NCBI RefSeq assembly: GCF_003966335.1
Contig: NZ_CP034549.1
Span: 1,410,001 to 1,442,000, forward strand
Reading direction: 5' to 3'
Length of the DNA: 32,000 nucleotides
Source: Nonlabens ponticola
Lineage (GTDB): Bacteria > Bacteroidota > Bacteroidia > Flavobacteriales > Flavobacteriaceae
The position numbers and the translations under genes are program-made. Positions 171-31,440 of the stretch are shown one piece after another. Numbering within the stretch: position 1 is the first letter of the stretch; each line of letters opens with the position of its first letter. Under the pieces are notes generated by a model, which did not search any database, was not told the origin of the DNA, and saw only the letters and a list, made by a program, of their open reading frames with translations.

Positions 171-184
171 GCTTTCGCGAAAGC
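171..184. repeat. Iterated palindrome copy 1, exact GCTTTCGCGAAAGC
   Basis: gattat[core]ggtaca. It lies in the leader region upstream of wza, within the doubtful ORF 24..206. Confidence 0.98.
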
Positions 185-290
185 GGTACAAAACGACATA
201 CAACACTGCACCCTAAAATAAACCGAACGATAAAGAGTTATATAACGTGGGATCGTGTGGATTTTAATAGGCTTTTTCTTAACTAAATTT

Positions 291-298
291 TATATTTA
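291..298 (+). promoter_or_regulatory. Candidate -7-like box TATATTTA upstream of wza
   Basis: It matches TAnnTTTG at 7 of 8 positions and ends 22 nt before ATG 321. The same 11-mer TATATTTACCG recurs at 27281. Confidence 0.25.
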
Positions 299-320
299 CC
301 GCTTACACCTCAAGGAAACT

Positions 321-1118
321 ATGCGTAAAGCTAGCTTACTACTATGGATAGCAATGATGTTGCTCGCGGCATCCTGCGTTCCTACCAATAAAATCACCTA
401 TTTACAGGAGTCAAAATCACAAGTCGTGGACAGTTTGAGCTATGTGCGCAAATTGCCGGCGCCTTACCGATTGCAGGTAGGCGATGTGCTCACGATCAAC
501 ATACGCACGGCGGTGGACGAAGAGAGTATCGCACCCATGTTTAGTATCGCGGGCGGCGCCACGGCCGATGACGGATCTGGCAATCCTTATTACACGGGTT
601 ACAATGTGGATACTCGAGGCGAGATACGCATGCCAGAGCTGGGCAAGATTAAGGTGCTGGGTCTCACGACAGATGAGGTGCGCATGAAACTGGAAAACAA
701 GATCAATAGCGAATATCTAAAAGAGGTCGCACAACTTTATATAACTGTAAAACTGGCTGGACTGCGCTATACCATGGTAGGTGAGGTGAGTGGTACCGGG
801 CAAAAGGTCATCTTTAGAGATCAGGTAAACGTGATTGAGGCCATTGCAGATGGTGGTGGCGTGCCGGTAACTGGCGACCTGACAAAGGTCAAGATCGTAC
901 GCAGTTATCCAGATGGTGTGCGCACGCACATCGTGGATGTTACAGATCTTGATATCGTGTACTCGCCATACTATTATATACAGCCCAATGACATGATTGT
1001 GGTAGATCCATTACCACAAAAAGCGCTGGGAACAGGTACCACTGGATTGAGTAGTTTTACCACTGTTTTATCCATCTTAACGGCGTTGACCACGGCAGTT
1101 TTACTTATTACTAGATAA
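321..1118 (+). CDS. wza: Wza-like polysaccharide export outer-membrane lipoprotein
   Basis: The track ORF is 255..1118 (GTG). I prefer the ATG at 321, which gives MRKASLLLWIAMMLLAASC, a lipoprotein-type signal peptide with Cys. It has a Poly_export-like motif (PAPYRLQVGDVLTINI), SLBB-like segments and a hydrophobic C-terminal helix as in Wza. Confidence 0.85.
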   Translation: MRKASLLLWIAMMLLAASCVPTNKITYLQESKSQVVDSLSYVRKLPAPYRLQVGDVLTINIRTAVDEESIAPMFSIAGGATADDGSGNPYYTGYNVDTRGEIRMPELGKIKVLGLTTDEVRMKLENKINSEYLKEVAQLYITVKLAGLRYTMVGEVSGTGQKVIFRDQVNVIEAIADGGGVPVTGDLTKVKIVRSYPDGVRTHIVDVTDLDIVYSPYYYIQPNDMIVVDPLPQKALGTGTTGLSSFTTVLSILTALTTAVLLITR

Positions 1119-1123
1119 AGCAG

Positions 1124-3598
1124 ATGGAAGAAGATAAAGAGGTAAACGCGCTTTCAGGCATATTTGATATCAAGCAATTTTTCCGCAAATTGCTCAAGTT
1201 GTGGTGGTTGCTGTTATTATGTCTCGCGATAGGCTTTTCCTATGCGTATTATAAGAATCAATTTATACAAACCTATTATGACGCTAGTTCTTTGATTTCT
1301 ATCAAAGACAATACAAACCCGCTATTCACTTCAAACCAAAGCCTTACTTTTAATTGGGGTGGCACTACTGACAAGGTGACTACCATTATTACTCAATTCA
1401 AGTCTCGTTCTCATGCAGAGCAGGTTGTTGATGATCTGCAATATTATGTGGAGTACATCAAGGAAGGCGATTATTATAATGTAGATGCCTATAAACAAAC
1501 GCCATTTTTTGTTTATGTAGATACCAGTCAGGCTCAATTGTATGGTAAGGAGCTGCGCATCACGGTGCTGGATCAGGATACCTTTGAGCTTTCCACTACA
1601 TTTACAGATGCCACAGCACCTGGATATGATTATGGTGGTAAAGAAAAGGTGACGCTCAAGGTTCCTGTAGGTGAGTGGAGCGAGCAGTTCAAATTTGGCG
1701 ATCCAGTGGCTCTAGACTTTTTGCACATTGACGTACAGCGTCGTGAGGAAACCATACCTGTAGGTGGTGAGTGGCTCATCAAATTTTCGGACTATTGGGC
1801 AACGGTTAATACTTACAAGGCTATAAGTGTAAGACCAACAGATGATGGTAGTTCTATTTTAAAATTGACCCTATCTGGTAGAAACAAGCAACGTCTTATA
1901 GATTATATCAATAGGAGTAGTGAAGTATTAGTACGTCAAGAATTAGAGCGAAAGAATAAATTTGCCGTGAGTACTATTATTTATATTGATAGTAGTCTAG
2001 CTTCAGAGGCTGATAGGCTTAAAAAATCAGAAAATGCTCTGGAAAATTTTAGAGGTAATAGTCAGCTAATCGATGCTAGTACTCAAAGCACCGATTTCAA
2101 CAATAAGTTGACTGATTATGAAATCCAGAAAAGAGATCTTAATAATAGGCTTAACTATCTTAACAATCTAGAGAGCTATCTGCGCAGCAAGACAGACTAT
2201 ACTAATATTCAAGCACCTAGTACGGTAGGTATATCCAGCGGTAGCATTTCACAATATGTAGGCCAGTTGGTACAATTATCTGCAGAGCGTAAGCGCAGGG
2301 AATTTAGCATGCGAGAGGACGCACCTATTTTTCAGGATCTTGATAGACGTATTGATGCAGTCAAGGATGTACTTTATGAGAATATCGAGAGTAATAAGGA
2401 TTTACTGCAAGATGAATTACAGAGTCTGAGTCGTGAGATCAACAGACTGGAATCACAGATACGTAGATTGCCTAAAGAGCAGCAGGAATTATTGAAAATT
2501 CAAAGACAAGTTGATATTACCCAACAAAGTTTTGATCTATTTAAGGCAAAACGTGCTGAAGCAGAATTAGTCAAAGCAGCAAACGTGTCTGATATTTATA
2601 TCATCGATGAAGCTAAGGATACTGGTAGTGGTGGAACTTCACGTGATGGTACCATAAATTATCTTATAGCTTTACTGATAGGTGTGACCATACCCATTAC
2701 CGTAGCTTTCGTTTTTACCATGTTGGATAATTTTATCCACTCACCTAAGGATCTAGAAAAGATCTCGCCAGTGCCATTAATAGGTGTTATAGGACGGATA
2801 GACCATCCTAATAATCTCGTGGCTTATGAAAAACCTAGATCTGCCGTGGCAGAGGCTTTCCGCGGGCTACGATCCAGCTTGCATTTTATGTACTCCACGC
2901 CTGCAATTCAAGGTACACGCACTATCATGGTCACGAGTAGCGTGAGTGGTGAAGGGAAGACATTTACTAGTATTAATCTGGCGACCATCTTTGCCATAAG
3001 TGGTAAGCGCACCGTGCTGGTAGGTCTCGATTTGCGCAAGCCTAAAATCTTTGATGATTTTAATGTTAAGAACAAGGTAGGTGTTTCTAATTTTCTAGTA
3101 AATGATGCCAGTATTGACGAGATTACCATGTCCACAGAAATTGAGAATCTTGACGTGATTTTGTCTGGACCTACACCGCCCAATCCCAGTGAGTTGATCA
3201 TGTCAGACAATATGGTGACCATGATTGAAAAGTTGAAGGAGCGTTATGATTATGTAATTCTTGACACGCCACCGGTAGGCCTGGTGGCAGACGCCATGGA
3301 AATTGCCCATTATGCAGATGCCACGCTTTATGTCGTGCGTCAAGGCTATACGCGCAAGGGTATGCTGGATATCGTCAATGAAAAGTATGTACGTAAAGAA
3401 TTTAAGAATGTGAGCTTGTTATTCAATTTCTTTAAGGATCAAGCCAGCTACGGTTATGGTTACGGTTACGGCTATGGATACGGTTATGGAGCTTACGGTA
3501 ATGGCTATCATGAGCAATATAAGAGTAAAAATAAGGCAGTACGTTTATTGCATAGATTAAGAAAGATTGTACCGCTTTCGCGAAAGCGTAATTCCTAA
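1124..3598 (+). CDS. wzc: Wzc-like chain-length determinant / bacterial tyrosine (BY) autokinase
   Basis: 824 aa with two TM segments flanking a long coiled-coil region. The C-terminal P-loop kinase has Walker A SSVSGEGKTF, Walker A' LVGLDLRKP and Walker B YVILDTPPVG, followed by a Tyr-rich tail. Confidence 0.9.
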   Translation: MEEDKEVNALSGIFDIKQFFRKLLKLWWLLLLCLAIGFSYAYYKNQFIQTYYDASSLISIKDNTNPLFTSNQSLTFNWGGTTDKVTTIITQFKSRSHAEQVVDDLQYYVEYIKEGDYYNVDAYKQTPFFVYVDTSQAQLYGKELRITVLDQDTFELSTTFTDATAPGYDYGGKEKVTLKVPVGEWSEQFKFGDPVALDFLHIDVQRREETIPVGGEWLIKFSDYWATVNTYKAISVRPTDDGSSILKLTLSGRNKQRLIDYINRSSEVLVRQELERKNKFAVSTIIYIDSSLASEADRLKKSENALENFRGNSQLIDASTQSTDFNNKLTDYEIQKRDLNNRLNYLNNLESYLRSKTDYTNIQAPSTVGISSGSISQYVGQLVQLSAERKRREFSMREDAPIFQDLDRRIDAVKDVLYENIESNKDLLQDELQSLSREINRLESQIRRLPKEQQELLKIQRQVDITQQSFDLFKAKRAEAELVKAANVSDIYIIDEAKDTGSGGTSRDGTINYLIALLIGVTIPITVAFVFTMLDNFIHSPKDLEKISPVPLIGVIGRIDHPNNLVAYEKPRSAVAEAFRGLRSSLHFMYSTPAIQGTRTIMVTSSVSGEGKTFTSINLATIFAISGKRTVLVGLDLRKPKIFDDFNVKNKVGVSNFLVNDASIDEITMSTEIENLDVILSGPTPPNPSELIMSDNMVTMIEKLKERYDYVILDTPPVGLVADAMEIAHYADATLYVVRQGYTRKGMLDIVNEKYVRKEFKNVSLLFNFFKDQASYGYGYGYGYGYGYGAYGNGYHEQYKSKNKAVRLLHRLRKIVPLSRKRNS
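3449..3508 (+). repeat. Imperfect hexanucleotide (TAY GGN) tandem repeat encoding the (YG)7-AYGNGY tail of Wzc
   Basis: Read directly: tac ggt tat ggt tac ggt tac ggc tat gga tac ggt tat gga gct tac ggt aat ggc tat. It is in frame with the ORF starting at 1124. Confidence 0.9.
3574..3587. repeat. Iterated palindrome copy 2, exact
   Basis: ttgtacc[core]gtaatt. It lies in the last 10 codons of wzc and is read as PLSRKR. Confidence 0.98.
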
Positions 3599-3603
3599 CA
3601 GCT

Positions 3604-4470: not shown

Positions 4471-4472
4471 GG

Positions 4473-5774: not shown

Positions 5775-6572
5775 TTGGATTTGGATAAGGAATACGAACT
5801 GCTTAGCAATAATACTGTTACTCACAACGGTAAAGAATACAGCTGCAGGACATTTAGTTTAGGTGATGTGATTTATAAAAAGGGAACCAATCCTATTTGC
5901 TTTAATGAAAATAGGTTTTTAAAAAAACTATCAAATTGTAAAAATTTCCCCAATGTTATAAATTTTGAGCAAGGCATTGAAGAATCTAGCATTACAATAA
6001 ACTTTGTCAAAGGGCAGCCTCTAGAAGATGAAATCAAGGGCAGCCATTATTTATCACATGCTCAAATTTGCCAAATTTTAGGCGGTTGCCTAGATATATT
6101 AATGCAGCTCGCACGGTATCAAATTATCCATAGAGATATCAGACCAGACAATATTATAATATCAAAAAATAAAGAACAATACATTCCTGTTCTCATCGAT
6201 TTTGGTTGGGGTAAATATGTACAAGAGCAAGATGTAATAACACCATCTTATCTGGGTGATATGCAGCGATTTCCTGGTACGCTTTTTAATGATAGCTATT
6301 CAATGGGATATTGTTTGATACCACTTAAAAGAACTGAGGCGTTGACTGAGCTCGTAAATAAATTCATGATGGTTGATCCAATTACGGATAAAAATTTTAA
6401 TCATGTCACACTGGTATTGAATGATCTAAAACAGGATCTTAAACATTATGAATCTAAAAAGATACAGGAGCAGTTCTATCTATGGTTTGAGTTTTTGAAA
6501 AAGCGCATTTCAGAGTCAAGAATAGGAGCAGCTTACAGGAAATCAATCACGAAAGAAGTCATTCATGATTAA
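5775..6572 (+). CDS. Small eukaryotic-like (Hanks-fold) kinase, possible glycan/sugar kinase
   Basis: TTG start. Catalytic loop HRDIRPDN at nt 6129-6152, DFG motif (IDFGWG) at nt 6198-6206, and a VIYKK beta3-lysine candidate. There is no clear Gly-rich loop, and at 265 aa it consists of a kinase domain only. Confidence 0.7.
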   Translation: MDLDKEYELLSNNTVTHNGKEYSCRTFSLGDVIYKKGTNPICFNENRFLKKLSNCKNFPNVINFEQGIEESSITINFVKGQPLEDEIKGSHYLSHAQICQILGGCLDILMQLARYQIIHRDIRPDNIIISKNKEQYIPVLIDFGWGKYVQEQDVITPSYLGDMQRFPGTLFNDSYSMGYCLIPLKRTEALTELVNKFMMVDPITDKNFNHVTLVLNDLKQDLKHYESKKIQEQFYLWFEFLKKRISESRIGAAYRKSITKEVIHD

Positions 6573-7500
6573 AGAAGATACTAGTGAGAAAATGGAGCAT
6601 GCGCTTGCGATCGTAATACCCTACTACAAAAAAGATTTTTTCAATGAATGTTTAAATTCTTTAAAAAATCAAACAAATAAAGATTTTAATCTGTACGTTG
6701 GAGATGATGCATCACCAGATGATCCTATTGAAGTCCTAAAACAATTTAAAGACGATCTAGATGTTAAGTATGTGCGTTTTGATAATAATCTAGGATCGAT
6801 TTCTTTGACTTCACAATGGATGCGTTGTCTAACCATGACATTAGATGAGCCATGGATAATGATATTGTGTGATGATGATTTACTATCACCAACTGTGGTA
6901 GATCAGTTTTATTTCCATAGACAACAAATAGAGAAGCATAATATTCAGGTAGTAAAATATGCTACTCAAGTAATAGATGGTAAAGGAGAACCCATCAGTA
7001 AAGTATATAAGCATCCTAGAATACAGCCTTATTCGAGAGTATTTGAAGAGCGTTTTTTTAAGGATGGACGCAGTTCTTTATCAGAGCATATGTTTACTCG
7101 TGGAGCTTATGAAAAACACGGTTTTAGAGACGTACCACTAGCTTGGCATGCAGATGATTATGCCTGGATGGACTTTTCTGAGTTTGGAGATATCTATAGT
7201 ATTAACGATGCGCTGGTGTTTTTCAGAATGTCAGATCAAAATATTTCTAGGGCTGATTATGAGCAAATCACAAAATGGACTGAGACATTTAAGTATTTCA
7301 ACTTTGTTCTAAAGCATAAGCGAGATTTTCTTCAAAAGGATCAGATCATTAAAGTAATCGATTATCTGGAATGGATGACTTATCAGTATGACATGAATAA
7401 GAAGGATCTAATTAACGCTATATTTTGGCAAACCTTGAGATATAAGGGTGGGATCAATCTTGCTAAATTTGTGCGCAGACTATATATAAACCGCTCATGA
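6565..7500 (+). CDS. GT-A fold (GT2-like) glycosyltransferase, paralog of 9385..10323
   Basis: LAIVIPYYKKDFFNECLNSLKNQTNKDFNLYVGDDASPDD plus a DDD motif (ILCDDDLL). It overlaps the upstream stop by 8 nt; an alternative ATG lies at 6592. Confidence 0.75.
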   Translation: MIKEDTSEKMEHALAIVIPYYKKDFFNECLNSLKNQTNKDFNLYVGDDASPDDPIEVLKQFKDDLDVKYVRFDNNLGSISLTSQWMRCLTMTLDEPWIMILCDDDLLSPTVVDQFYFHRQQIEKHNIQVVKYATQVIDGKGEPISKVYKHPRIQPYSRVFEERFFKDGRSSLSEHMFTRGAYEKHGFRDVPLAWHADDYAWMDFSEFGDIYSINDALVFFRMSDQNISRADYEQITKWTETFKYFNFVLKHKRDFLQKDQIIKVIDYLEWMTYQYDMNKKDLINAIFWQTLRYKGGINLAKFVRRLYINRS

Positions 7501-8453
7501 ATAAAAATAAATTAGTCTCCATTCTAATACCTATCTACAATCGTGAACACCTTATTGAACAAACACTTCAATCAATTTCTATTCAAACGTATAAAAACTT
7601 TGAATGTATCATCGTGGATGACGGCTCTACTGACGATACTGTTGGTGTGATTTCTGCTTTCGCGAAAGCTGATCCAAGATTTAAAATTTTCATAAGATCA
7701 AAGGATCGAACTAAAGGAGCAAATTCATGTAGGAATATCGCTTTTGAGAAGTCACGAGGGGAAATTATAAAGTGGTTTGATAGTGATGACATAATGCTTG
7801 AAGATCATTTGCAGCTAGCTACTCATGCACTTGAAGACGAGCAAATAGATTTTGTAGTATCAGAAAGTGAAATTTTTGTTGATGATAAAAAAAAAGGTGC
7901 CGCTCCTTTTCATTCCTCTAAAGACGCCTCATTGATAAGCCCGGAAAACTATGCAAAGTTCGTCGTTGGTTGGATTACAAATGACTTTACTTGTAAAAGA
8001 AACACCATTCTTAATACGCGTTTTAATGAAAGATTTAGAACTGCTGGAGATGAGTATAACTTCTTCATTAAATACTTGCATAACACAACGGCAGGTGCCT
8101 TCATAGATAGAGTGACAACTCTTTATAGGCAACATGACATATCGTTAAGTAGCGATGTTGATGTTGATGAAGTAAAATACCACACTAATATTTGTGAGAT
8201 AAAATACTTGTGTAGTAACGACATGATTGCTCTGAGTAATTATGAATTAGCAAATTGGTTTATGGACGGTTACATAAATCATGCACATATTTTAATGAGC
8301 AAATCCACAAGTATTCCTTTTCTACGATCGGCCTTTAAGGATCTAGAAATAATCAAAACGAGTACACATGCCAATTATTTAAGATTGGCTCAACTTTCGT
8401 TTAGAGTTTTTGGAAAGGGTTACTATTTCATTAGAAAAGCCCGCGGCAACTAA
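7497..8453 (+). CDS. Family 2 glycosyltransferase
   Basis: Classical GT2 N-terminus VSILIPIYNREHLIEQTLQSISIQTYKNFECIIVDDGSTDDT and DSDD motif. It has a 4-nt ATGA overlap with the upstream gene. Confidence 0.9.
   Translation: MNKNKLVSILIPIYNREHLIEQTLQSISIQTYKNFECIIVDDGSTDDTVGVISAFAKADPRFKIFIRSKDRTKGANSCRNIAFEKSRGEIIKWFDSDDIMLEDHLQLATHALEDEQIDFVVSESEIFVDDKKKGAAPFHSSKDASLISPENYAKFVVGWITNDFTCKRNTILNTRFNERFRTAGDEYNFFIKYLHNTTAGAFIDRVTTLYRQHDISLSSDVDVDEVKYHTNICEIKYLCSNDMIALSNYELANWFMDGYINHAHILMSKSTSIPFLRSAFKDLEIIKTSTHANYLRLAQLSFRVFGKGYYFIRKARGN
7656..7669. repeat. Iterated palindrome copy 3, exact
   Basis: gatttct[core]tgatcc. It lies in the GT2 gene 7497..8453 and is read as AFAKA. Confidence 0.98.
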
Positions 8454-11545: not shown

Positions 11546-12561
11546 GAGTCGGTTATAACCCAAATAGGAATCAACAACTATCAGACGCGGTATACACACA
11601 TTTAGTCGTGGTGCCCGTTTATATTCCACATTTAAGAGATTACTATAAGGACAGTTTGAGAATTTTAGAAAGCTGTCTAAAATCTTTGATAAATTCTGTT
11701 CATTCAAATACGCTAATATCGGTTGTTGATAACGGGAGTTGTCAAGAAGTAAATTCTTTCCTAAGCGAGATGTTGAAAGAGCGCATCCTAGATGAGCTTA
11801 TTACAACCGTAAATATTGGAAAATTGAATGCCATACTTAAAGGAGTGTCTGGTCATAAAGTTGACCTGATAACCATTTCTGACGCTGATATTTTATTTGT
11901 GAAAGGTTGGCAAAAAGAAACAGCAGATGTTTTCTTAAACATTAAAAAGGCGGCGGTAGTGGGATTGATCCCGCAATTCAAGATGTATTCGAGTTATAGC
12001 TCCAATTTAATATTTGACTATTTATTTTCAAGCAAATTGAAATTTAAACCAGTAGATAATCCCAGTGCCATGAGGGAATTTTATCGCAGTATCGGTTGGA
12101 AAGACAATTACAACAAAAATTATCTGAAATATCACTTAACCATTACCCATAATGATGTAGTGGCGGTCGTCGGATCTGGTCATGCGGTTGCTACCTATAA
12201 ATCGGAAATATTCACCAAGATAAATCATGAGGTATCTACATTTAAACTTGGTGGAGGCTCAGAATCTCGTATTCTAGACTCTTCGGCGTTAAAACTCGAT
12301 GGTTACCGACTTACAACAGCGCAAAACTTTGCATACCATATGGGGAACATTTTTGAGCCATGGATGGAAAGAACAAGTTTTGAAGGACGACCCAAAGTTT
12401 CTAACGATCATCTTTTAAGTTTCAAAAATAAACTTGAAAAAAGGCCGGTGAGATTTTATTTAAAAAGTAAAATGTTTAAAAGACTTTTCAAAGTTTCCAT
12501 TTTTACTCGGCTCTTTCTCAGGACAAAGGGATTAACTTCAGATATTGCACGTAATTATTAA
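11542..12561 (+). CDS. GT-A fold glycosyltransferase-like protein
   Basis: TTG start overlapping the upstream stop by 4 nt. VVVPVYIPHL...ISVVDNGSCQE and ITISDADILF (a DxD-like motif). Confidence 0.6.
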   Translation: MRVGYNPNRNQQLSDAVYTHLVVVPVYIPHLRDYYKDSLRILESCLKSLINSVHSNTLISVVDNGSCQEVNSFLSEMLKERILDELITTVNIGKLNAILKGVSGHKVDLITISDADILFVKGWQKETADVFLNIKKAAVVGLIPQFKMYSSYSSNLIFDYLFSSKLKFKPVDNPSAMREFYRSIGWKDNYNKNYLKYHLTITHNDVVAVVGSGHAVATYKSEIFTKINHEVSTFKLGGGSESRILDSSALKLDGYRLTTAQNFAYHMGNIFEPWMERTSFEGRPKVSNDHLLSFKNKLEKRPVRFYLKSKMFKRLFKVSIFTRLFLRTKGLTSDIARNY

Positions 12562-12565
12562 GTAT

Positions 12566-13483
12566 ATGAATTACATTTTTTCATTGCTAATATGCACTAA
12601 GGATAGGTTGGACCAGCTTTCAAGAACACTAAGTATAATGTCAGCACAAATATTATCAGAAGAGCTTGATGTTGTAATTATAGACGATGGATCCTCTGAT
12701 GGCACATATGAATTTGTTAAAAACAATTACCCAGCAATTAGAGCTTTTAGAAACCAACGAAGTCTTGGACTTATGGCTTGTAGAAATTTTTTACTAGAAA
12801 ATGCAAAGGGTAAATATTCTATCTCACTAGATGATGATGCGCACATACTCACTCCAGAGTACACTAAAAAATTGCTATCCTTTTTTAACGATAATCCAAA
12901 GTGCGCTGTTGCTGCACTACGAATATTTTGGTCTGTAGATGAGCCATCTAGAATAGACACCTTAGATAAACCTCAACAGGTTCAAAGTTTTGTGGGTTGT
13001 GGTCATGTTTGGAACATGCACGCGTGGAAGGAGATCGATCCGTATCCAGAATGGTTCGAGTTCTATGGTGAAGAAGATTATGCATCTTACCAATTATTTA
13101 AAAATGGGTGGAAGGTTCTATACTACCCAGCAATTTTGGTACAACATAGGGTGGACTTAAAACAACGTAAGAAGGATCGGGAAAACTATTATTCGCGATT
13201 AGGCAAAGGGATCAGGGCAGGTTGGTTCTTATATGCAATGTTTTATCCTTTAAAACCAGCTATTCGAATGATATCATATAGTCTCTGGATTAAGTTAAAA
13301 AATGACGTATTCAAAGGTGATTTAAGAATGCTATTGATTTTGATAAGTGTAGTTAAGGATTTCATATTCAATTGTCATCGATTTATCAATTCAAACAGGT
13401 TGACCATGAAAGAATACAAAGAATTTAAAAAGATTGATAAGGCTAAGATATATTGGACACCAAAAGAAAAACAATCACGGTAA
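12566..13483 (+). CDS. Family 2 glycosyltransferase
   Basis: The track ORF starts at TTG 12545. I prefer ATG 12566 (MNYIFSLLICTKDRLDQL...VVIIDDGSSDGT), with DxD motif SLDDDAHIL. Confidence 0.85.
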   Translation: MNYIFSLLICTKDRLDQLSRTLSIMSAQILSEELDVVIIDDGSSDGTYEFVKNNYPAIRAFRNQRSLGLMACRNFLLENAKGKYSISLDDDAHILTPEYTKKLLSFFNDNPKCAVAALRIFWSVDEPSRIDTLDKPQQVQSFVGCGHVWNMHAWKEIDPYPEWFEFYGEEDYASYQLFKNGWKVLYYPAILVQHRVDLKQRKKDRENYYSRLGKGIRAGWFLYAMFYPLKPAIRMISYSLWIKLKNDVFKGDLRMLLILISVVKDFIFNCHRFINSNRLTMKEYKEFKKIDKAKIYWTPKEKQSR

Positions 13484-13565: not shown

Positions 13566-13579
13566 GCTTACGCGAAAGC
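13566..13579. repeat. Iterated palindrome copy 4, one mismatch (GCTTACGCGAAAGC)
   Basis: cttata[core]taaaat. It lies in the 13484..13719 spacer, with T>A at 13570. Confidence 0.8.
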
Positions 13580-18394: not shown

Positions 18395-19929
18395 TGATCC
18401 AGTTGTCCCCATATACTACAGCAACAGGTGTAGAATTACTTTATACAGGCAGTCCAGATGTGAAAATGTTGGATCAATTAGCTGATGGTCCAGGTGACAT
18501 CTGGCATTCTGGGTTACAACAAGGCCTAGCAAATGCTTTTCCCGAATTAAAATATCAGGCTGCAACTTTTTGGTGGTATATCAATGATTTTCCTAATAAT
18601 GATCAAGTGATCTCCTGGCGATTTCCGCTGGACAGCTTTGTCATACGCAAAAATGTTTGGAATCAAACTCAAGGAATTGATTCAGATTACGATGATGAGT
18701 TAATTTCTGGTTTAGATTTTGGGTATAGATTATTGAGATACGCTGGAGCAACGATTTTGCATATTGATGGTTTATTTGATGCAGATTCAAAAAGCTCACA
18801 AATTTCAGACAAAGACCTCGTGAGATTCTACTTGAAGTTTTTCAAGAAAGATCACTTGTATTACATGATTTCTAGGCAATCCATAGGTAGAGCAGCTCAA
18901 ATAACGAGCTTGATGTTATCTCTCAAGAGCAAAGTGAAGCGATATCAAGAAGAACTCATAGAACCTAGAGAATTACAGGAAATCGCAGGTCAACCTACTG
19001 TAAGTTACATTATTCCAACTATGATGCGTCAGGAGATGACAGCTGCGTTGCTAGACGATCTTGCGGCACAAACTTATCCACCAACGCAGGTCATCATTAT
19101 AGATGCAACACCAGAAAGCGATCGAGTAGATGATATTTATGATAAGAGGCTTCCATTTGAATTAATAGTAGAATGGCAAACGACCAAAGGTAGCTGCCGT
19201 GCACGCAATGAAGCTTTGGAACACGTGACGAGTGACTATGTCATTTTTGGGGATGATGATATTAAGATCCAACCACAGTTTGTAGAAAACCACTTAAGAT
19301 TTCTACAAACCTATAAAGCAGATGCCTGCAACGGTTCAGATATCATGGCAGACCATGCTCAACAGGATTTAAGCGACTTGGCAAAAAAAGTAGGTCAATT
19401 AGACAAATCATTTTTTAGGACTGGCGTTTCTCAATCGTTTAATAACGCCAACTCTTGTGTGCGTCGTGAATGGATAGAAAAAATAGGTCCCAATGATGTT
19501 AATTATGATGGTGGCTATGGCGAGGACAGCGACTATGGTATTAGACTAGTCAAGAATGGTGCGGTGGTGCTATACAATCCGTTTTCCATCAATTTACATC
19601 TCAAGCCGCCCAAAGGTGGTTACCGTTTTTGGGGTGCGGAAAGTAAGAAGCTCGGAAAAGCGCGGAAAAAGCAACCATGGGAAGGCGATAGGCCTGTTCA
19701 AGATATCATACCTGTGCCAAGTCCGACAATTAATTATTTTAATATCAAGCACTTTACACCAGAGCAAAATCAAGAATACAAGCGTATTCATTTATTTAAA
19801 AAGTGGACCAAAAATGGTTTGGGTGGCATGTGGTATGCACTCAAAAATTCAAGTTATCAAAAAAAGCAATTTGCCGAGTCCATGATCTATGCAAGGGCCT
19901 TGCTTAAAAAAGGAGAGACCTACCGTTGA
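18394..19929 (+). CDS. Two-domain protein: ~190-aa N-terminal domain of unknown function plus C-terminal GT2 domain
   Basis: The GT2 block is VSYIIPTMMRQEMTAALLDDLAAQTYPPTQVIIIDATPESD with FGDDDIKI. I do not recognise the N-terminal part. Confidence 0.75.
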   Translation: MIQLSPYTTATGVELLYTGSPDVKMLDQLADGPGDIWHSGLQQGLANAFPELKYQAATFWWYINDFPNNDQVISWRFPLDSFVIRKNVWNQTQGIDSDYDDELISGLDFGYRLLRYAGATILHIDGLFDADSKSSQISDKDLVRFYLKFFKKDHLYYMISRQSIGRAAQITSLMLSLKSKVKRYQEELIEPRELQEIAGQPTVSYIIPTMMRQEMTAALLDDLAAQTYPPTQVIIIDATPESDRVDDIYDKRLPFELIVEWQTTKGSCRARNEALEHVTSDYVIFGDDDIKIQPQFVENHLRFLQTYKADACNGSDIMADHAQQDLSDLAKKVGQLDKSFFRTGVSQSFNNANSCVRREWIEKIGPNDVNYDGGYGEDSDYGIRLVKNGAVVLYNPFSINLHLKPPKGGYRFWGAESKKLGKARKKQPWEGDRPVQDIIPVPSPTINYFNIKHFTPEQNQEYKRIHLFKKWTKNGLGGMWYALKNSSYQKKQFAESMIYARALLKKGETYR

Positions 19930-20909
19930 AACTCGCACTCATCATATGCACCTACCAGCGGCCTGATGCCATCATGCGCTTGATGAAAACAGTGCAGAAT
20001 CAATCGGTAAAGCCTTATCAAATTCTAATTATTGATGGATCGCAGGATGATTTCACGGGATTACGCTTTCGCGAAAGCAAAATAGAAAACCTACATTATC
20101 ACAAAGTGCCAGAGGAACATCGCGGACTCACCAGACAGCGCAATTATGGCGTGCAAAGAGTTGATAAGGAAATTAATGTAGTTGCATTTCTAGATGATGA
20201 TGTCTTGCTGGAAGCCGACTATTTTGAGCAAATTCTTAATACGTACCATGAGCATCCTGATGCTCTCGCGGTCGGCGGCTATATTACCAATGAGGTTGAA
20301 TGGAATAAATCTACAGACGCTAACAGCGGCTTTTGTATGGATGGTTATTGCCGTAGCCTAGGCAGCAGGCATAAACTGCGCAACAAGCTAGGACTTGCTC
20401 CAGATGTTCCACCAGGACACATGCCTGCATTTGGTCATGGCTATTCCGTAAGCTTTTTACCACCATCGGGCAAAACATATCCAGTCCAGCAATTAATGGG
20501 TGGCGTGGCAAGTTACCGGGCAAGTGTCTTCAAGAATCATATATTCTCATCTTACTTTGAAGGTTACGGTCTTTATGAGGATGCAGATTTTAGTTTACGA
20601 TTGGCCAGAACAGGTAAGCTATACATCAATACTGCTGCGAGACTAGAGCATCACCATGACCCTAGTGGCAGGCCTAATTATTACAAGTATGGCAAGATGG
20701 TGGTGCGCAATGGCTGGTATGTATGGCACGTTGTGAATCCGCAACCTACACTCAAGGCAATTTTAAAGTGGTATGCCATCACAAAATTGCTCATTGCCAT
20801 CCGTTTGAGTAATGTGATTACTGGACCAGATAGAAGTGCCGCTCTCAAAGAAAGTATTGGCCGTATCGCAGGATTATGCAGTTTACTATTTAATGCACCA
20901 CGCCCATGA
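19926..20909 (+). CDS. Family 2 glycosyltransferase
   Basis: TTG start with a 4-nt overlap. LALIICTYQRPDAIMRLMKTVQNQSVKPYQILIIDGSQDD and AFLDDDVLL. Confidence 0.85.
   Translation: MKLALIICTYQRPDAIMRLMKTVQNQSVKPYQILIIDGSQDDFTGLRFRESKIENLHYHKVPEEHRGLTRQRNYGVQRVDKEINVVAFLDDDVLLEADYFEQILNTYHEHPDALAVGGYITNEVEWNKSTDANSGFCMDGYCRSLGSRHKLRNKLGLAPDVPPGHMPAFGHGYSVSFLPPSGKTYPVQQLMGGVASYRASVFKNHIFSSYFEGYGLYEDADFSLRLARTGKLYINTAARLEHHHDPSGRPNYYKYGKMVVRNGWYVWHVVNPQPTLKAILKWYAITKLLIAIRLSNVITGPDRSAALKESIGRIAGLCSLLFNAPRP
20065..20078. repeat. Iterated palindrome copy 6, exact
   Basis: ggattac[core]aaaata. It lies in the GT2 gene 19926..20909 and is read as RFRES. Confidence 0.98.
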
Positions 20910-22895: not shown

Positions 22896-23720
22896 TTACA
22901 CATGGACGTGAAAAGTCTGCTGTCGCTGTTCCTTGCGCAAAAATATCAAGCCCCATTGAAACGTATCTATACACGCGGTCACTTTTGGATGGTTCTGCAA
23001 GGTTTTCCATGCTGTCGTCATACCAGTCGACCAATAAATATCATCGACAATCACGATGCTATCATCGTGCAGGTGCGGCAATAATCTCTCAAAATAATCA
23101 AGGGTAGCCGCACCATCATGGTGACCATCGATAAATACAAGATCATATTGGCTTTTCTGGTCAAGCTTATCGAGGAATACATCAAAAGTAGAACTGATCG
23201 ACGTGATGTTAGAGATTTTAAAATCATCCCAACGTTGTCGCGCATAATCCAGCACTGCTGGGCTCGCCTCAACTGTGGTTATATCAGAAGTTAGCGATAG
23301 GGCATGAGCAGTTACTCCTAACGAGGTGCCTAATTCAAGAGCGTTCTCGACATTGAGATAATCTGCAATACGAGCTAATAATTGAGTCCTGTAGTGGCTG
23401 CTGCAATTGACTTTGAGGATTTGTGAAGTGTTCCGCAGTGATTTGTTAAGCTTTTTACTACCTGCACCGTGGTCAGTGATTTGCAGCGTTGCTGGATGGC
23501 TTGTTATGCTTTCGCGAAAGCGTAATAGTTCATCTTTCACTGCAAGAGACGATCCTTGTTGCAAGCAATCCTTGTTGAAGGCATAGATAAATGGCGAGTG
23601 GATGCCATGAAGATGTATCGATTTAAACCGATGCGCTAGGTAGTATTTGATCTGATGCCACACGTGGCAAAAATAGGTGATGTGCACGCCAGAGCAAGAA
23701 ATCGGGCCATCAAAGAGCAT
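22896..23720 (-). CDS. Class I SAM-dependent (O-)methyltransferase
   Basis: Motif I ALELGTSLGVTAHAL and DLVFIDGHHDGAATLDYF are typical of the Methyltransf_24/OMT-3 type. The start is uncertain: ATG 23720, or GTG 23663 giving (M)WHQIKYYL. Confidence 0.75.
   Translation of the reverse strand: MLFDGPISCSGVHITYFCHVWHQIKYYLAHRFKSIHLHGIHSPFIYAFNKDCLQQGSSLAVKDELLRFRESITSHPATLQITDHGAGSKKLNKSLRNTSQILKVNCSSHYRTQLLARIADYLNVENALELGTSLGVTAHALSLTSDITTVEASPAVLDYARQRWDDFKISNITSISSTFDVFLDKLDQKSQYDLVFIDGHHDGAATLDYFERLLPHLHDDSIVIVDDIYWSTGMTTAWKTLQNHPKVTACIDTFQWGLIFLRKEQRQQTFHVHV
23508..23521. repeat. Iterated palindrome copy 7, exact
   Basis: ttgttat[core]gtaata. It lies in the minus-strand methyltransferase gene and is read as RFRES. 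Confidence 0.98.
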
Positions 23721-26231: not shown

Positions 26232-26265
26232 GACAGATTCATCGTCACGTTCAATTCTACAGCCC

Positions 26266-27273
26266 ATGAATATTATTTACATAGGCAATAAGTTGCAGAA
26301 TAAAAATCGCACGGCAACAACGATCGATACGTTGGGTTCACGATTAGAAGCATTAGGTTTTAACATGAAGTATGCCTCTAGTAAATCCAACAAAATCTTA
26401 CGGCTGCTAGACATGATTAACACCGTTATTACTTATTCAAGATGGGCTGATAAGGTTTTAATTGATACGTATAGCACTCAAAACTTTTGGTATGCGATAA
26501 GTTTGGCTCGCATCTGTAGATTGTTGGGTATTCCTTACATTCCTATATTACATGGAGGCAATTTGCCAGCACGATTGCAATCGCAGCCTAAGATTTTCAA
26601 GAGGTTTTTAAACGCAGCACAGCATATAGTTTGTCCTAGTGCTTATCTAGAGCAAGCTTTCGCGAAAGCTAACTTCTCAAATATCAATGTCATACCTAAC
26701 AGCATTCAAGGTGAGCACTATACTTTTAACAAGCGAGAGTCTATAACTCCAAAATTATTGTGGGTGCGTTCACTAGCAGCGATCTACAATCCACAGATGG
26801 CAATACATGCCCTGAAATCCATTGCCGAAACATATCCCAACGCGAGCCTCACAATGGTAGGTCCAGATAAAGAGAACATGTTGCCAGAGTTGAGAAGACT
26901 GGCTAATGAGCACCATCTAGACATCACATTTACTGGTTTATTATCAATAGCTGAATGGATTGCATTGAGTGATGAACACGATATTTTTATCAACACCTCA
27001 CATTTTGATAATCTGCCTGTGAGTCTACTTGAAGCTATGGCATTAGGGTTACCTGTAATATCTACTGAGGTTGGTGGTATTCCCAACTTGATTGATCATG
27101 GTAAAAACGGCATACTTATAGCAGACGATGATGCTCAACAAATGGCTGATCAGATCAAATTGTTGATACAAGATCCTGCTAAAGCCGCTGCCCTATCAAT
27201 GAATGGCCGCTTGAAGGCCGAAAGCTATTTCTGGGAACAGGTTAAACAACAATGGTTCACCATATTGACATAA
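26266..27273 (+). CDS. Family 4 (GT-B) glycosyltransferase
   Basis: FDNLPVSLLEAMALGLPVISTEVGGIPNLIDHGKNGILI (EX7E). Confidence 0.85.
   Translation: MNIIYIGNKLQNKNRTATTIDTLGSRLEALGFNMKYASSKSNKILRLLDMINTVITYSRWADKVLIDTYSTQNFWYAISLARICRLLGIPYIPILHGGNLPARLQSQPKIFKRFLNAAQHIVCPSAYLEQAFAKANFSNINVIPNSIQGEHYTFNKRESITPKLLWVRSLAAIYNPQMAIHALKSIAETYPNASLTMVGPDKENMLPELRRLANEHHLDITFTGLLSIAEWIALSDEHDIFINTSHFDNLPVSLLEAMALGLPVISTEVGGIPNLIDHGKNGILIADDDAQQMADQIKLLIQDPAKAAALSMNGRLKAESYFWEQVKQQWFTILT
26656..26669. repeat. Iterated palindrome copy 8, exact
   Basis: gagcaa[core]taactt. It lies in the GT4 gene 26266..27273 and is read as AFAKA. Confidence 0.98.
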
Positions 27274-27280
27274 GAAACGA

Positions 27281-27288
27281 TATATTTA
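27281..27288 (+). promoter_or_regulatory. Candidate -7-like box TATATTTA upstream of the initiating sugar transferase
   Basis: It has the same 11-mer TATATTTACCG as at 291..301 and ends 21 nt before ATG 27310. Confidence 0.25.
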
Positions 27289-27309
27289 CCGTTGACAGAT
27301 TCCCCAAGT

Positions 27310-28701: not shown

Positions 28702-28705
28702 ATAT

Positions 28706-30352
28706 TTATTTACGCTTCATCTTACCACGCTTAAATATTGCAAACAGTAAAGTGAATAGACCTAGTACGCTGGCAAGTCTAGCAATGTAATCGCCATGCG
28801 TATTGTAAAAAGTTATTTTGTCATACAGGTCGATAGTTCCTTTGATGGATCCTCGTTTTTCATAACCTAGCGATTGTTGAATAGTTCCCATAGGATCTAT
28901 AATCGCACTAATACCAGTGTTGGCACTGCGTGCTATACTTCTTCTGGTTTCAACAGCTCGCAATCGCGCCAGGCTTAAATGCTGTTGATGACCTTGAGTG
29001 TTGTCCCACCACGCATCATTAGTAATAATAGCAAGAAATTGCGCGCCATTGTTGACATAATCTCCCACATAATCACCATAAACCGATTCATAGCATATGA
29101 TTGGTGCAACGGCGATGCTATCATTAGATTTGAAAACGCTGCGTTCTTCTTGAGTAGTTTTGGTAGCTACTGTGCCACCTAGATCAATCATTGCATCGCC
29201 CAGAATAGGTTGCAAGATTCCTTTATACGGGAAATTCTCGACGCCTACCACAAGCTTTGATTTGTGATATAGTTCTGTCGCTCGATTTCCAGATAAGAAA
29301 AAGGCACTATTATAATCATCATAATAAAACCTGCCAGCGGCATAGTAATTAGTCTGTCGCTTGACGCGATTTTCTTCTCTAAATCGATCGATTAAAGAAA
29401 CACCACCTAAAAATGAGGCGTCATCATATTGAGCTGTTAGATTTTTCAATTGATTCAAGCTGCGGTCATAAGGGACTCGTGATAGCTCGATGGATCTGGA
29501 AAGAACGGTTTCAGGCGCGATTATAAAATCAGGATTGTAGCTGGCTGGATCTGGTAGTAAATCCGATAATCTTGAGACAAACTCTGTATTCTCTAGATCG
29601 TATTTCTCGTCATAGGGATCAACATTGGGCTGCAAGATCACGACATCAACCTGTCCAATTGATTTTAGTTCTTGTTGTGCAATTAATAATGAGACTAGTA
29701 GCGGGCTTGCAATCAAGAATAGAGGTAATGCGATAGCTTTTAACATTCTAGAGAGGCTTGCTGGGTTTTTGCTTTGGCGAAAGCGTAATACCGACAAAAA
29801 CACCACCACGTTTACCAGCCATATCCACAAGCTACCACCAAAGGTGCCCGTGTATTCATACCACTGAATCCATGAAGTATGCTCACTGAAACCATTACCC
29901 AAGTTAAGCCATGGCCAGGAAAATTCCCAATGCAGGTGCATCCATTCAAAAGCGATCCATAAACAAACCAGAAAGGTGAGTGATGCGCCAGTAGTGGAAC
30001 GGCGCGCAAATAAATGATAAACCCAAAACACCAATGCCATGAGTAACGAGTTGACCAGCACTGCAAAGAACATCCCAAAGGCCGTTGAATTATATAACCA
30101 GCCTGTTGTCGCGTAATTCCACAACACAAAGGTGAGATAGGCGAGTCCCAAAACTTTCCAGCCTCGCGCTTTTTTTGACTCAACTCTTATAGATCGCTCT
30201 ACCAGCAGCAACGGCACAAAGGCTACAAATAATAAAGCAGGAAAACCATAGGTAGGCCACCCCAACCAGAGCAATAGTGCGCTGATCAACGATAAACCTA
30301 AAAGTTGTGCGGTGGACAAAAGGATTGATTTTTTAAGACTGCAAAATAACAA
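28706..30352 (-). CDS. lnt: Apolipoprotein N-acyltransferase
   Basis: 548 aa with an N-terminal multi-TM region plus a C-terminal CN-hydrolase domain (PETV..., KSKLVVGVE, APIICYESVYGDY with catalytic Cys). TTG start. Confidence 0.85.
   Translation of the reverse strand: MLFCSLKKSILLSTAQLLGLSLISALLLWLGWPTYGFPALLFVAFVPLLLVERSIRVESKKARGWKVLGLAYLTFVLWNYATTGWLYNSTAFGMFFAVLVNSLLMALVFWVYHLFARRSTTGASLTFLVCLWIAFEWMHLHWEFSWPWLNLGNGFSEHTSWIQWYEYTGTFGGSLWIWLVNVVVFLSVLRFRQSKNPASLSRMLKAIALPLFLIASPLLVSLLIAQQELKSIGQVDVVILQPNVDPYDEKYDLENTEFVSRLSDLLPDPASYNPDFIIAPETVLSRSIELSRVPYDRSLNQLKNLTAQYDDASFLGGVSLIDRFREENRVKRQTNYYAAGRFYYDDYNSAFFLSGNRATELYHKSKLVVGVENFPYKGILQPILGDAMIDLGGTVATKTTQEERSVFKSNDSIAVAPIICYESVYGDYVGDYVNNGAQFLAIITNDAWWDNTQGHQQHLSLARLRAVETRRSIARSANTGISAIIDPMGTIQQSLGYEKRGSIKGTIDLYDKITFYNTHGDYIARLASVLGLFTLLFAIFKRGKMKRK
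29771..29784. repeat. Iterated palindrome copy 9, one mismatch (GCTTTGGCGAAAGC)
   Basis: gttttt[core]gtaata. It lies in minus-strand lnt and is read as RFRQS, with C>G at 29776. Confidence 0.8.
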
Positions 30353-30372
30353 TCAATAGTGTCATATCGCGA

Positions 30373-31440
30373 TTATCTAAAGACAGATAAATCAATATTG
30401 AGCGAGAAAACGTTGCTGTACAGCGCGGCACTTTGATCGCCTATATCAGTTAATGCATAATCTACTGATATGCCCTTGTACTTAAATCCTATCCCGATAT
30501 TAGGCTGGAAAGTCACGTCATCATTGCCATCGAGTTGCTGTACATTCTGGAAATTACCGACTCCGGCACGCACAAATACCAAATCTGTATAACCGTATTG
30601 CAATCCTAGGGCTGGCGTGGCGCTTATGGAACCGCTGGAGAATATGTCGTTAGTCTGTATAAATCGCATGTTTAAATCGACCTCGGCGAGAAGCACATGA
30701 TCATAGTGAAATACAAACTCGCGAGCAATGCCTAGTTGTAGTTTTGGTAAGGTGATTTCAGTCGTTTCTGGAAGTTCTTGATTTTGGTTTTCTACGGCAT
30801 CGCTTACCGTCGCAAACTCGTCCTCATCGATGGACCACGTATTATAGGTGGTTGTAATATCTCTTACCATCGCGCCAAATTTCCATTTACCACGCTCCAA
30901 TTGAACACCTAGATCAATACCAAAGCCAATTGAACTCGCAAAATCACCTATCACGCGACGTATGATCTTGACGTTACCACCATATGAAAAACCGTCCAGT
31001 TTTGATTCACGAGCATAGGATGCAGTGACAGCCCAATCTGCGGTAGAAAAGGTAGAAATACGATCATAATTAATGTTTCCTTGATCGTCGATAAGTTGTG
31101 TCGTATTCAAAATATCATCGACTGAAAATCTTATTACGGAAAATCCTATGGCACTTTGATCATCAATAGGCATAGCGTATGCACCGTAGTTGTATTGTGC
31201 GATGTTGGCAAAATAGCTTGAGTGCATCAGCGAGATTTCCTTTTCTTCCAGCTGCATGAGTCCTGCTGGATTCCAGTAACCTGCGTTGACATTGCTGGTG
31301 CTGGCAACCACGGCGTTGCTCATTCCCAATGCTGCTGCATCGACACCTATGTTCAAAAATTCATTGGAATAGGCTCTTGAGGTTTGCGCTTTCGCGAAAG
31401 CGGAACAAACTAAAATTAAAATAACACTATAGTATCTCAA
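30373..31440 (-). CDS. Outer-membrane beta-barrel protein, PorV/PorQ-like (T9SS-associated family)
   Basis: Signal peptide MRYYSVILILVCSAFAKA|Q. N-terminal block NEFLNIGVDAAALGMSNAVVAS...AGYWNPAGL, alternating beta-strand pattern, C-terminal aromatic residue. TTG start, 20 nt upstream of lnt. Confidence 0.55.
   Translation of the reverse strand: MRYYSVILILVCSAFAKAQTSRAYSNEFLNIGVDAAALGMSNAVVASTSNVNAGYWNPAGLMQLEEKEISLMHSSYFANIAQYNYGAYAMPIDDQSAIGFSVIRFSVDDILNTTQLIDDQGNINYDRISTFSTADWAVTASYARESKLDGFSYGGNVKIIRRVIGDFASSIGFGIDLGVQLERGKWKFGAMVRDITTTYNTWSIDEDEFATVSDAVENQNQELPETTEITLPKLQLGIAREFVFHYDHVLLAEVDLNMRFIQTNDIFSSGSISATPALGLQYGYTDLVFVRAGVGNFQNVQQLDGNDDVTFQPNIGIGFKYKGISVDYALTDIGDQSAALYSNVFSLNIDLSVFR
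31388..31401. repeat. Iterated palindrome copy 10, exact
   Basis: gtttgc[core]ggaaca. It lies in the signal peptide of the minus-strand PorV/PorQ-like gene and is read as AFAKA. Confidence 0.98.

Follow-up and report, generated by a model that had tools for sequence, protein, structure and literature searches.

An exact 14-bp palindrome iterated through Nonlabens, Dokdonia and related Flavobacteriaceae, apparently a new genomic signature word

Copies within a capsule and exopolysaccharide cluster

The window analysed here is a 32-kb stretch of DNA from the flavobacterium Nonlabens ponticola (assembly GCF_003966335.1, contig NZ_CP034549.1, positions 1,410,001 to 1,442,000 of the forward strand; coordinates below count from its first nucleotide), which covers a capsule/exopolysaccharide cluster and in which a perfect palindrome of 14 bp, GCTTTCGCGAAAGC, recurs in genes and spacers. 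By their Pfam matches, the genes of the window encode Wza/Wzc proteins, an ABC-2/Wzt transporter, several glycosyltransferases of the GT2 and GT4 families, a Wzy-like ligase, a sugar transferase, a class I methyltransferase, Lnt and a PorV-like outer-membrane protein. The methyltransferase and the ABC ATPase next to it match N. ponticola proteins at 100% identity; an exact look-up of the Wzc of the window gave no record.

A pattern search of the window found eight exact copies of GCTTTCGCGAAAGC, starting at 171, 3574, 7656, 16260, 20065, 23508, 26656 and 31388, and two copies with one mismatch, at 13566 (T5>A) and 29771 (C6>G), whereas copies with two mismatches are absent from it. An earlier reading of this DNA, made from the letters alone (the sequence-only reading), had listed the same ten sites, and the intervals of 1.6–5.9 kb that it gave between them came out the same when re-measured. 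Its rough estimate of chance occurrence, about 1e-4 or fewer per 32 kb, also agrees with window-trained Markov models of order 0 to 2, which predict 5e-5 to 1e-4 exact copies per 32 kb against the eight seen; shuffles of the window that preserve dinucleotides yielded 0.09 matches at up to two mismatches. A high-order model (order 5) was uninformative because every sub-word comes from the copies of GCTTTCGCGAAAGC themselves. All eight occurrences of the inner TTCGCGAA in the window fall within the full 14-mer, whose centre, TCGCGA/CGCG, reads directly as an NruI-type site, as had been noticed before.

In genes the word can be translated in three frames, which we name after their peptides AFAK, RFRES and LSRK. 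The first copy (171–184) is non-coding and lies 70 nt upstream of the start (255) of a Wza-like (Poly_export) gene, flanked by tTAT on the left and GGTAc on the right; copies upstream of Poly_export genes, at most putative orthologues of site 171, also occur in Nonlabens sp. YIK11 and N. antarcticus. The second (3574–3587) lies within the last eight codons of wzc, and thus at the C-terminus of Wzc, in the LSRK frame. Three glycosyltransferase genes carry the word in the AFAK and one in the RFRES frame: a GT2 gene at 7497–8453 (copy 7656–7669, AFAK, codon 54), two GT4/GT1 genes at 16164–17261 (16260–16273, AFAK, codon 33) and 26266–27273 (26656–26669, AFAK, codon 131), and a further GT2 gene at 19926–20909 (20065–20078, RFRES, codon 47, flanks TTAC and AAAA). 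On the minus strand, the class I O-methyltransferase gene at 22896–23720 has an exact copy in the RFRES frame (23508–23521), lnt (28706–30352) has the one-mismatch copy GCTTTgGCGAAAGC (29771–29784), which encodes RFRQS, and the gene of the PorV-like outer-membrane protein (30373–31440) has an exact copy (31388–31401, flanks TTGC and GGAA) that encodes the signal-peptide cleavage region, CSAFA/KAQ. The other one-mismatch copy, GCTTaCGCGAAAGC (13566–13579), is located in a low-GC stretch, in the 237-bp gap between the open reading frames (ORFs) 12545–13483 and 13720–14514. In total, four copies of the window use the AFAK frame, three RFRES and one LSRK, and two are outside ORFs. Pfam confirmed the gene assignments at the copies and, together with the ORF map, bears out the sequence-only reading that the copies sit in unrelated genes on both strands and in non-coding DNA.

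The cluster also contains an ORF with a protein-kinase-like domain (5775–6572; Pkinase/ABC1, E=2e-12), situated between the Wzt-like ABC ATPase and the first GT2 gene.

Range, density and spacing of the word

We scanned one genome per species from 185,579 species in blocks of 8 kb; the figures given here refer to the first 120 matching blocks listed. Of these, 83 came from Dokdonia, Nonlabens or unnamed Flavobacteriaceae, often with two or three copies each, and 8 further blocks from other flavobacteria or unnamed bacteria bring this set to 91, or about 76%. The remaining 29 were single matches in unrelated, mostly high-GC organisms and had no flank consensus (see below). The word is present in more than 40 independent assemblies at orthologous in-frame positions, including the complete chromosome NZ_CP138998.1 and the scaffolds of strain BBFL7 (CH672374), and is therefore not an assembly artefact, the origin that would have disposed of the earlier observation. 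Along a 3.37-Mb Dokdonia chromosome matches are spread widely, at 0.88, 1.38, 2.15 and 2.82 Mb among others.

For comparison we fetched loci by way of orthologous proteins, so that they were unselected for GCTTTCGCGAAAGC. Exact copies numbered six in 20.8 kb of Nonlabens sp. YIK11, seven in 20.8 kb of N. antarcticus, five in 20.8 kb of strain BBFL7, five in 21.4 kb of Croceiramulus getboli, four in 21.3 kb of a Dokdonia metagenome-assembled genome (MAG) and four in 19.4 kb of a Dokdonia-like contig. The syntenic loci of Psychroflexus, Gramella and Winogradskyella had no copy in 62 kb, even at two mismatches. The taxonomic range is narrow and its boundary apparently sharp. The window and the six motif-bearing loci together have 39 copies in 156 kb, or one per 4.0 kb, and one per 4.7 kb when the ascertained sites are left out. 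A zero-truncated Poisson estimate on the 8-kb blocks came to one per 6.7 kb, too low a density if the copies are spaced evenly. Extrapolating from the roughly 0.75 Mb that was sampled, we infer some 600–800 copies per 3-Mb genome.

We also tried to trace the taxonomic boundary with homologues of RimO. This was dropped, since the protein is 88–90% identical across the family and is too conserved to rank genera; the comparison did expose an RFRES footprint and Croceiramulus as a carrier. In a neighbour-joining tree of this single gene a split separates the motif-bearing genera from the others, weak evidence that is compatible with a single origin of the motif.

Some observations at the edge of this range should be recorded. 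Two orthologous blocks, L071 and L110, from assemblies labelled 'uncultured Aquimarina sp.' have copies with the typical C and G flanks; in L110 two copies are separated by 933 bp. Either some organisms bearing the Aquimarina label share the motif or the taxonomic labels are loose. In the non-bearing Psychroflexus sp. C1, a repeated palindrome, CGGAATTCCG, was considered as a 'dialect' of the motif and rejected: it is part of intergenic repeats of 100–290 nt within 2.5 kb that resemble miniature inverted-repeat transposable elements (MITEs) or repetitive extragenic palindromes (REPs). Four repeat copies, with CGGAATTCCG and a GGGG..CCCC hairpin, surround an AAA_14/DUF4143 gene there (locus L244, 6750–9300). 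The Gramella locus contains short tandem arrays of GGAAAGTGGAAAG and CGTCTAA repeats, and the Winogradskyella locus short tandem arrays of AGTGAGA-type repeats.

The copies avoid each other and are evenly spaced. Of the 50 gaps within the blocks of the first set, only one was shorter than 1 kb where 13.8 would be expected, a deficit not reached in any of 20,000 simulations. The ten sites of the window have a coefficient of variation (CV) of spacing of 0.33 (P=5e-4). In the independent set formed by the window and the six protein-fetched loci, 5 gaps were below 2 kb against 13.3 expected (P=1.5e-4), with a CV of 0.55 (P=7e-4). The only very short gap seen is a local duplication in N. antarcticus (locus L242, 4800–4950), where a segment of about 30 bp, GAGTTC-GCTTTCGCGAAAGC-TTAATTCACTT, occurs twice, 114 bp apart, upstream of a Wza-like gene.

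In foreign DNA the word is scarce. In the 35.7 kb of the isolated Nonlabens phage P12024S, where the host density would predict 5–9 copies, there is none, not even at two mismatches; this phage encodes a DNA methyltransferase of its own, at 32699–33376 of locus L239. A scan of a viral collection returned mostly single, chance matches in unrelated viruses, besides about 8–10 low-GC contigs with several copies and with typical flanks and spacing. The two multi-copy contigs that we examined have genes for portal, major head, protease and adaptor proteins, and one is a provirus in the genome of an isolate; such prophage-like contigs have three copies per 11–12 kb. Within the window, the segment 6000–14000, with GT2 genes and unassigned ORFs, has a GC content of 0.34–0.36 against 0.39–0.43 elsewhere and carries one exact copy at its edge (7656) and one with a mismatch, the latter being all that its part from about 8 to 14 kb contains; from its composition and gene content it looks like a more recently acquired, serotype-variable part of the cluster. 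The motif-free phage, the motif-bearing prophages and the sparse low-GC segment together suggest that the word marks DNA long resident in these chromosomes.

Anatomy, origin and maintenance of the site

The conserved site extends beyond the 14-mer to a palindrome of about 22 bp, TTAC-GCTTTCGCGAAAGC-GTAA. In a logo of 140 copies, C at position −1 and G at +1 are found in 81%; farther out the left flank reads T-T-A/C/T and the right flank is its mirror image. Intergenic copies have the consensus TAC-GCTTTCGCGAAAGC-GTA(A); 89% of them carry G at +1 and 81% carry A at +3. Over the outer 15–25 nt or so, the inbound strand is C-poor and G/T-rich and the outbound strand G-poor and A/C-rich, a skew that disappears beyond about 36 nt. 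Since the skew is seen whatever the codon position or reading frame, and in spacers too, it is a property of the DNA and not of the encoded proteins, which rules out a coding artefact as its source. An extended hairpin formed by the flanks was likewise rejected, as in-register pairing beyond about 4 nt is no higher than when flanks are swapped between copies. Taken as a whole, the element is a two-fold symmetric unit of about 50 bp. Outside the motif, TCGCGA occurs six times in the window against about four expected and so gives no sign of restriction avoidance.

In a set of 141 copies, 109 (77%) lie in long ORFs, 57 in the AFAK, 24 in the RFRES and 28 in the LSRK frame, and 32 (about 23%) lie outside, the non-coding share of the DNA being estimated at about 10%. 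Mapping copies to coding sequences and frames, a check that the sequence-only reading had proposed, therefore finds all three frames and the spacers in use. By gene arrangement, about 19 of the intergenic copies are between tandem, 7 between divergent and 3 between convergent genes. One (block L088, 3639–3652) lies in the 47 nt that separate tRNA-Gly(tcc) from tRNA-Thr(ggt), with tRNA-Tyr upstream, and to judge by this position would form part of a pre-tRNA transcript.

In about ten cases an AFAK copy codes for the final part of a signal peptide, where a hydrophobic core is followed by AFA/KAQ or KAY; besides window site 31388 these include copies in blocks L015, L026, L043, L057, L089, L100, L103 and L113. 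The signal-peptidase cleavage region of several secreted or outer-membrane proteins is therefore set by the DNA word, and this end of the signal peptide tolerates the residues of the AFAK frame.

Where an orthologue has no copy, the alignment is ungapped and the difference consists of substitutions, as in the Aquimarina-labelled pair, where L110 and L071 oppose GCTTTTGCAAGAAG to the motif. RimO is graded at its motif position: BBFL7 has EDFRAT, N. antarcticus has RFRES but departs from the motif by two synonymous mismatches, and Dokdonia and Croceiramulus have the motif exactly; other genera have KEFRAK, KEFRKA and similar peptides. The ungapped orthologues and this graded series indicate that copies were written by point substitution at permissive places and not inserted.

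Once present, copies remain exact at orthologous positions even where the protein around them has diverged to about 50% identity. The O-methyltransferase copy (23508) occurs unchanged and at the same codon in five of five Nonlabens genomes, whose proteins are 45–59% identical, whereas three outgroups have unrelated sequence there, with 6–7 mismatches. Across outgroup genera the peptide at this place is highly variable (KFQKQ, KYRND, AYRKT and others). In N. antarcticus the protein reads CFRES: the residue preceding FRES has changed from R (CGC) to C (TGC), which keeps the GC of the motif and thus shows conservation of the DNA word, not of the peptide. The copy at the end of wzc (3574) is exact in Nonlabens sp. 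YIK11 and N. antarcticus, hence in three of four Nonlabens including the window, and is absent from BBFL7 and two outgroups. A copy in a pyruvyl-transferase gene is kept in three of three genomes, and one in cinA is common to BBFL7 and N. tegetincola. The signal-peptide copy of the PorV-like protein (31388) is exact in the orthologous block of a MAG, L015, with 72% nucleotide identity around it; near the position that corresponds to the lnt copy (29771), the same syntenic MAG locus has no copy at up to two mismatches. Other sites are lineage-specific, the orthologous sequence being unrelated, with at least five mismatches.

After discounting the ascertained copy of each block, there are 57 exact, 15 one-mismatch and 14 two-mismatch copies, a ratio of perfect to one-mismatch copies of about 4:1, and three-mismatch copies are at chance level. 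Such an excess of perfect copies requires selection or a drive of the conversion type. Among the 15 one-mismatch variants, three are CpG transitions against about 1.4 expected, no clear excess, and none of the mismatch copies has a compensatory change in the stem. A force acting on the DNA itself holds the copies exact and freezes peptides that otherwise vary, such as RFRES and AFAKA.

We regard it as virtually certain that GCTTTCGCGAAAGC is a real, clade-specific motif that is maintained at the level of DNA. The sequence-only reading had argued for a DNA-level signal on the ground that neither protein homology nor local duplication could explain the copies, and the use of all three frames and the word kept exact across an R-to-C change support it. 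It had recognised the 14-bp word correctly; it had missed that the consensus extends to 22 bp with skewed flanks, that copies are evenly spaced and conserved at orthologous sites, and that their taxonomic range is narrow.

Candidate roles and known signature words

The perfect two-fold symmetry of the site, the strict conservation of its sequence rather than of a stem, and its mirror-symmetric flanks make it probable that it is read as duplex by a symmetric (dimeric) protein. As the taxonomic boundary is narrow and apparently sharp, this is directly testable: the gene for the reader should be among those that the three motif-bearing genera have in common and that Winogradskyella, Gramella and Psychroflexus lack.

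For the role of the site, the reading that we place first, with a probability of roughly 40%, is that it may serve as a self-DNA tag in transformation or recombination, by analogy with the uptake signal sequences (USS) and DNA uptake sequences (DUS) of proteobacteria and with HIP1 of cyanobacteria. Substitutions create copies wherever coding sequence and flanks permit, and a symmetric protein, perhaps a methyltransferase or a receptor acting on the central TCGCGA/CGCG, would read them. Marked in this way as the clade's own, conspecific DNA would be favoured in natural transformation, either when it is taken up or when it is processed and recombined. A molecular drive, through biased uptake or gene conversion and aided or not by selection, would then propagate and preserve the copies and might space them at about one per recombining fragment. 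We rank this reading first because uptake sequences and HIP1 have the same set of signatures: extreme enrichment, use of all frames, a flank consensus, an excess of perfect copies, copies that persist at orthologous sites but also turn over to some extent, regular spacing and rarity in foreign DNA. HIP1 is reported to stimulate natural transformation by up to more than 100-fold, depending on methylation, and the same study proposes both an uptake and a Chi-like component (bioRxiv 10.1101/2024.09.10.611283); it is also quasi-periodic and co-varies with genes of the DNA-uptake machinery (bioRxiv 10.64898/2026.06.24.733823). Closer to our organisms, Riemerella species, placed in the Flavobacteriaceae by the paper, are naturally competent and prefer their own DNA (PMC7965970).

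Several points weigh against a self-DNA tag. We found no report of natural competence in Nonlabens, Dokdonia or Croceiramulus in the searchable literature, and Flavobacterium johnsoniae was not transformable (PMC7965970). The site is a perfect palindrome, whereas classical USS and DUS are asymmetric. The genome-wide copy number is an extrapolation from the sampled DNA and not a whole-genome count, and the phage evidence comes from one isolated phage, the motif status of whose own host strain is unchecked. Moreover, even spacing, orthologous conservation and absence from foreign DNA would also be predicted by a selected array of chromosomal binding sites.

Such an array, of high-affinity, operator-like sites for a clade-specific dimeric protein that organises the nucleoid or chromosome in the manner of Noc, SlmA, MatP or ParB, is unlikely in our view, though it stands next in our ranking. 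Regularly placed sites would anchor, phase or mark the chromosome, each held by selection; a dedicated protein phasing a whole chromosome at intervals of about 4 kb would be even more unusual than a self-DNA tag. The perfect palindrome with symmetric flanks, about 50 bp in all, has the footprint typical of an oligomeric DNA-binding protein, and the even spacing, the scatter of matches along whole chromosomes and large scaffolds, the conservation of orthologous sites and the copy-free isolated phage all fit. However, known chromosome-organising systems have tens of sites, tolerate degeneracy and avoid coding constraints, whereas here hundreds of sites are kept perfect over 14–16 bp, even fixing amino acids; nor did we identify a candidate protein. 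The resemblance to parS and Noc sites that had been suggested from the arms of the palindrome did not hold, since the spacing of the half-sites is different, TTTC-N2-GAAA instead of TTTC-N4-GAAA, each half-site being displaced by 1 bp, and since the sites are not few but about one per 4 kb. Less probable still, and in line with an older view of HIP sequences, is that the copies are a by-product, without use to the cell, of a DNA methyltransferase and a biased short-patch repair that converts near-cognate into cognate sites. It would account for the NruI-type TCGCGA and CGCG centre, for the origin of sites by substitution with a strong excess of perfect copies, and for the presence of the word in host-resident prophage-like DNA and its absence from the isolated phage, and there is a parallel in HIP1, which is bound by two methyltransferases (bioRxiv 10.64898/2026.06.24.733823). 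Yet mutational bias alone does not predict that copies repel each other, TCGCGA outside the motif is neither avoided nor enriched, and CpG transitions are in no clear excess among the mismatches. Known biased repair systems such as Vsr, moreover, act in contexts of 4–6 bp, not of 14–22 bp with compositional flanks of 15 nt.

We consider it improbable that the word is a bidirectional hotspot of the Chi kind, at which a helicase-nuclease of the AddAB/RecBCD type arriving from either side would stop, with RecA loaded on the 3'-ended strand, so that own DNA is protected and foreign DNA destroyed. The density of about one per 4–5 kb is the same as that of Chi in E. coli, and on either side the strand leading 5' into the motif is rich in G and T and poor in C, a composition that RecA prefers; by inference only, a 3' tail that ends at the site would thereby suit the loading of RecA. 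The isolated phage without copies fits as well, and a Chi-like component has been proposed explicitly for HIP1 (bioRxiv 10.1101/2024.09.10.611283). Against this stands the form of the site: recognition of a single strand is not compatible with a palindrome of 14–22 bp and dimer-like symmetry, for which, being its own reverse complement, no orientation bias is possible. All Chi sites known to us are 5–8 nt long, asymmetric, strand-skewed and read as single-stranded DNA, so that the Chi analogy drawn in the sequence-only reading is formally a poor match. Finally, a hairpin in RNA or single-stranded DNA, acting as terminator, attenuator, processing or stability element, or a mobile element of the REP/RAYT or MITE type, is very improbable. 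The 22-mer can fold into a 9-bp hairpin (−7.3 kcal/mol as DNA), and the over-representation of copies in spacers, one of them between tRNA genes, would suit it. But the sequence is conserved and not merely the stem, without compensatory variants; hairpins in their native context are no stabler than shuffles (z −0.06 to −1.8); and pairing specific to a copy does not extend past about 4 nt of flank. The 3' flanks are A-rich and not T-rich, a terminator scan lists none of the copies, and the intergenic copies are mostly between tandem or divergent genes. Scans for promoters and known RNAs also gave nothing at the copies, with no Rfam match in the window. REPs, bacterial interspersed mosaic elements and MITEs, of which the first had been offered as an analogue, are ruled out by the intragenic majority of copies, in all frames, and by motif-free orthologues that align without an insertion.

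If the word is a self-DNA tag, it might be the first uptake or self-recognition system of Bacteroidota and the first built on a long perfect palindrome with a symmetric receptor or methyltransferase, in which about 700 evenly placed tags per genome bias transformation and recombination towards conspecific DNA, a possibility that we put forward tentatively. Marine Flavobacteriaceae would then be a new model for the evolution of genomic signature words, and, should the tag promote transformation, these proteorhodopsin-bearing marine flavobacteria, which are of ecological importance, could become genetically tractable. Whatever its role, the word is a near-absolute marker of the chromosomal DNA of this clade in metagenomes and could aid binning, the assignment of prophages to hosts and the detection of recent transfer. 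It also illustrates that a DNA-level signal can fix variable segments of proteins, signal-peptide cleavage sites included.

Iterated words that are maintained against coding constraint are rare, the only well-studied ones being USS and DUS, in two proteobacterial families, and HIP1, in cyanobacteria, the function of which has been open for 30 years. The present motif adds a case from a third phylum, with a very high information content of 14 invariant bp plus flanks. In the searchable literature, which leaves subscription journals outside its coverage, we found no description of the 14-mer, in line with the sequence-only reading, which knew of no function for it; the 10-mer core appears there only in unrelated contexts, and we found nothing on iterated palindromes in Dokdonia or Nonlabens. 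The word is thus apparently a genome-wide signature not described before.

As that reading had also proposed, DNA uptake sequences and HIP1 are the right analogues, sharing hyper-abundance and the use of all frames. USS (Pasteurellaceae, core AAGTGCGGT with AT-rich flanks) and DUS (Neisseriaceae, a 12-mer) consist, like our motif, of a strictly conserved word with an extended flank consensus. All are enriched by orders of magnitude along the chromosome (in our case with whole-genome counts extrapolated), lie in genes, in all frames and at the cost of tolerated peptides, as well as in spacers, where they are relatively enriched, arise by point substitution, persist at orthologous sites across the species of their clade with an excess of perfect copies, are scarce in foreign DNA and are more evenly spaced than random, as Karlin et al. 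(1996) reportedly found for USS. They differ in that the present word is a perfect palindrome of 14–22 bp and USS and DUS are asymmetric, in its density, which is about 3–4 times lower, and in its hosts, which are Bacteroidota and in which it is known from sequence alone, whereas USS and DUS belong to two families of proteobacteria. We know of no uptake sequence in Bacteroidota.

HIP1 (GCGATCGC) is the closer parallel in form: it is palindromic, hyper-abundant, clade-wide, intragenic in all frames, conserved beyond neutral expectation and quasi-periodic, and has a centre of the restriction/methylation type. The word GCGATCGC itself has no copy in the window, whose host is a flavobacterium. HIP1 comprises 8–10 bp, compared with a 14-bp core, a 22-bp consensus and skewed flanks here, and the phyla differ; the density of our motif per kb is about 5–10 times lower and its information content per site far higher. 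The function of HIP1 is now being linked to natural transformation (bioRxiv 10.1101/2024.09.10.611283, 10.64898/2026.06.24.733823).

The parS site (TGTTNCACGTGAAACA) and the Noc-binding site (ATTTCCCGGGAAAT) are, like our motif, palindromes of 14–16 bp with TTTC/GAAA arms, presumably read by dimers, and Noc sites too are scattered over most of the chromosome. In our motif the arms are 2 bp closer (TTTC-GC-GAAA as opposed to TTTC-N4-GAAA), and its copies are tolerated and conserved in coding sequence and kept perfect. A genome has about 10 origin-proximal parS and about 70 Noc sites; with hundreds of copies, our motif exceeds them by one to two orders of magnitude. A short palindromic self tag for transformation that is read by a methyltransferase, CtsM of Campylobacter jejuni, is also cited within PMC7965970; its site RAATTY is 6 bp long, degenerate and not hyper-iterated above the frequency given by composition, in contrast to the long, exact and accumulated word of the flavobacteria. 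We place GCTTTCGCGAAAGC in the same class as USS/DUS and HIP1, that of recognition words iterated throughout a genome, of which it represents a new architecture in a new phylum.

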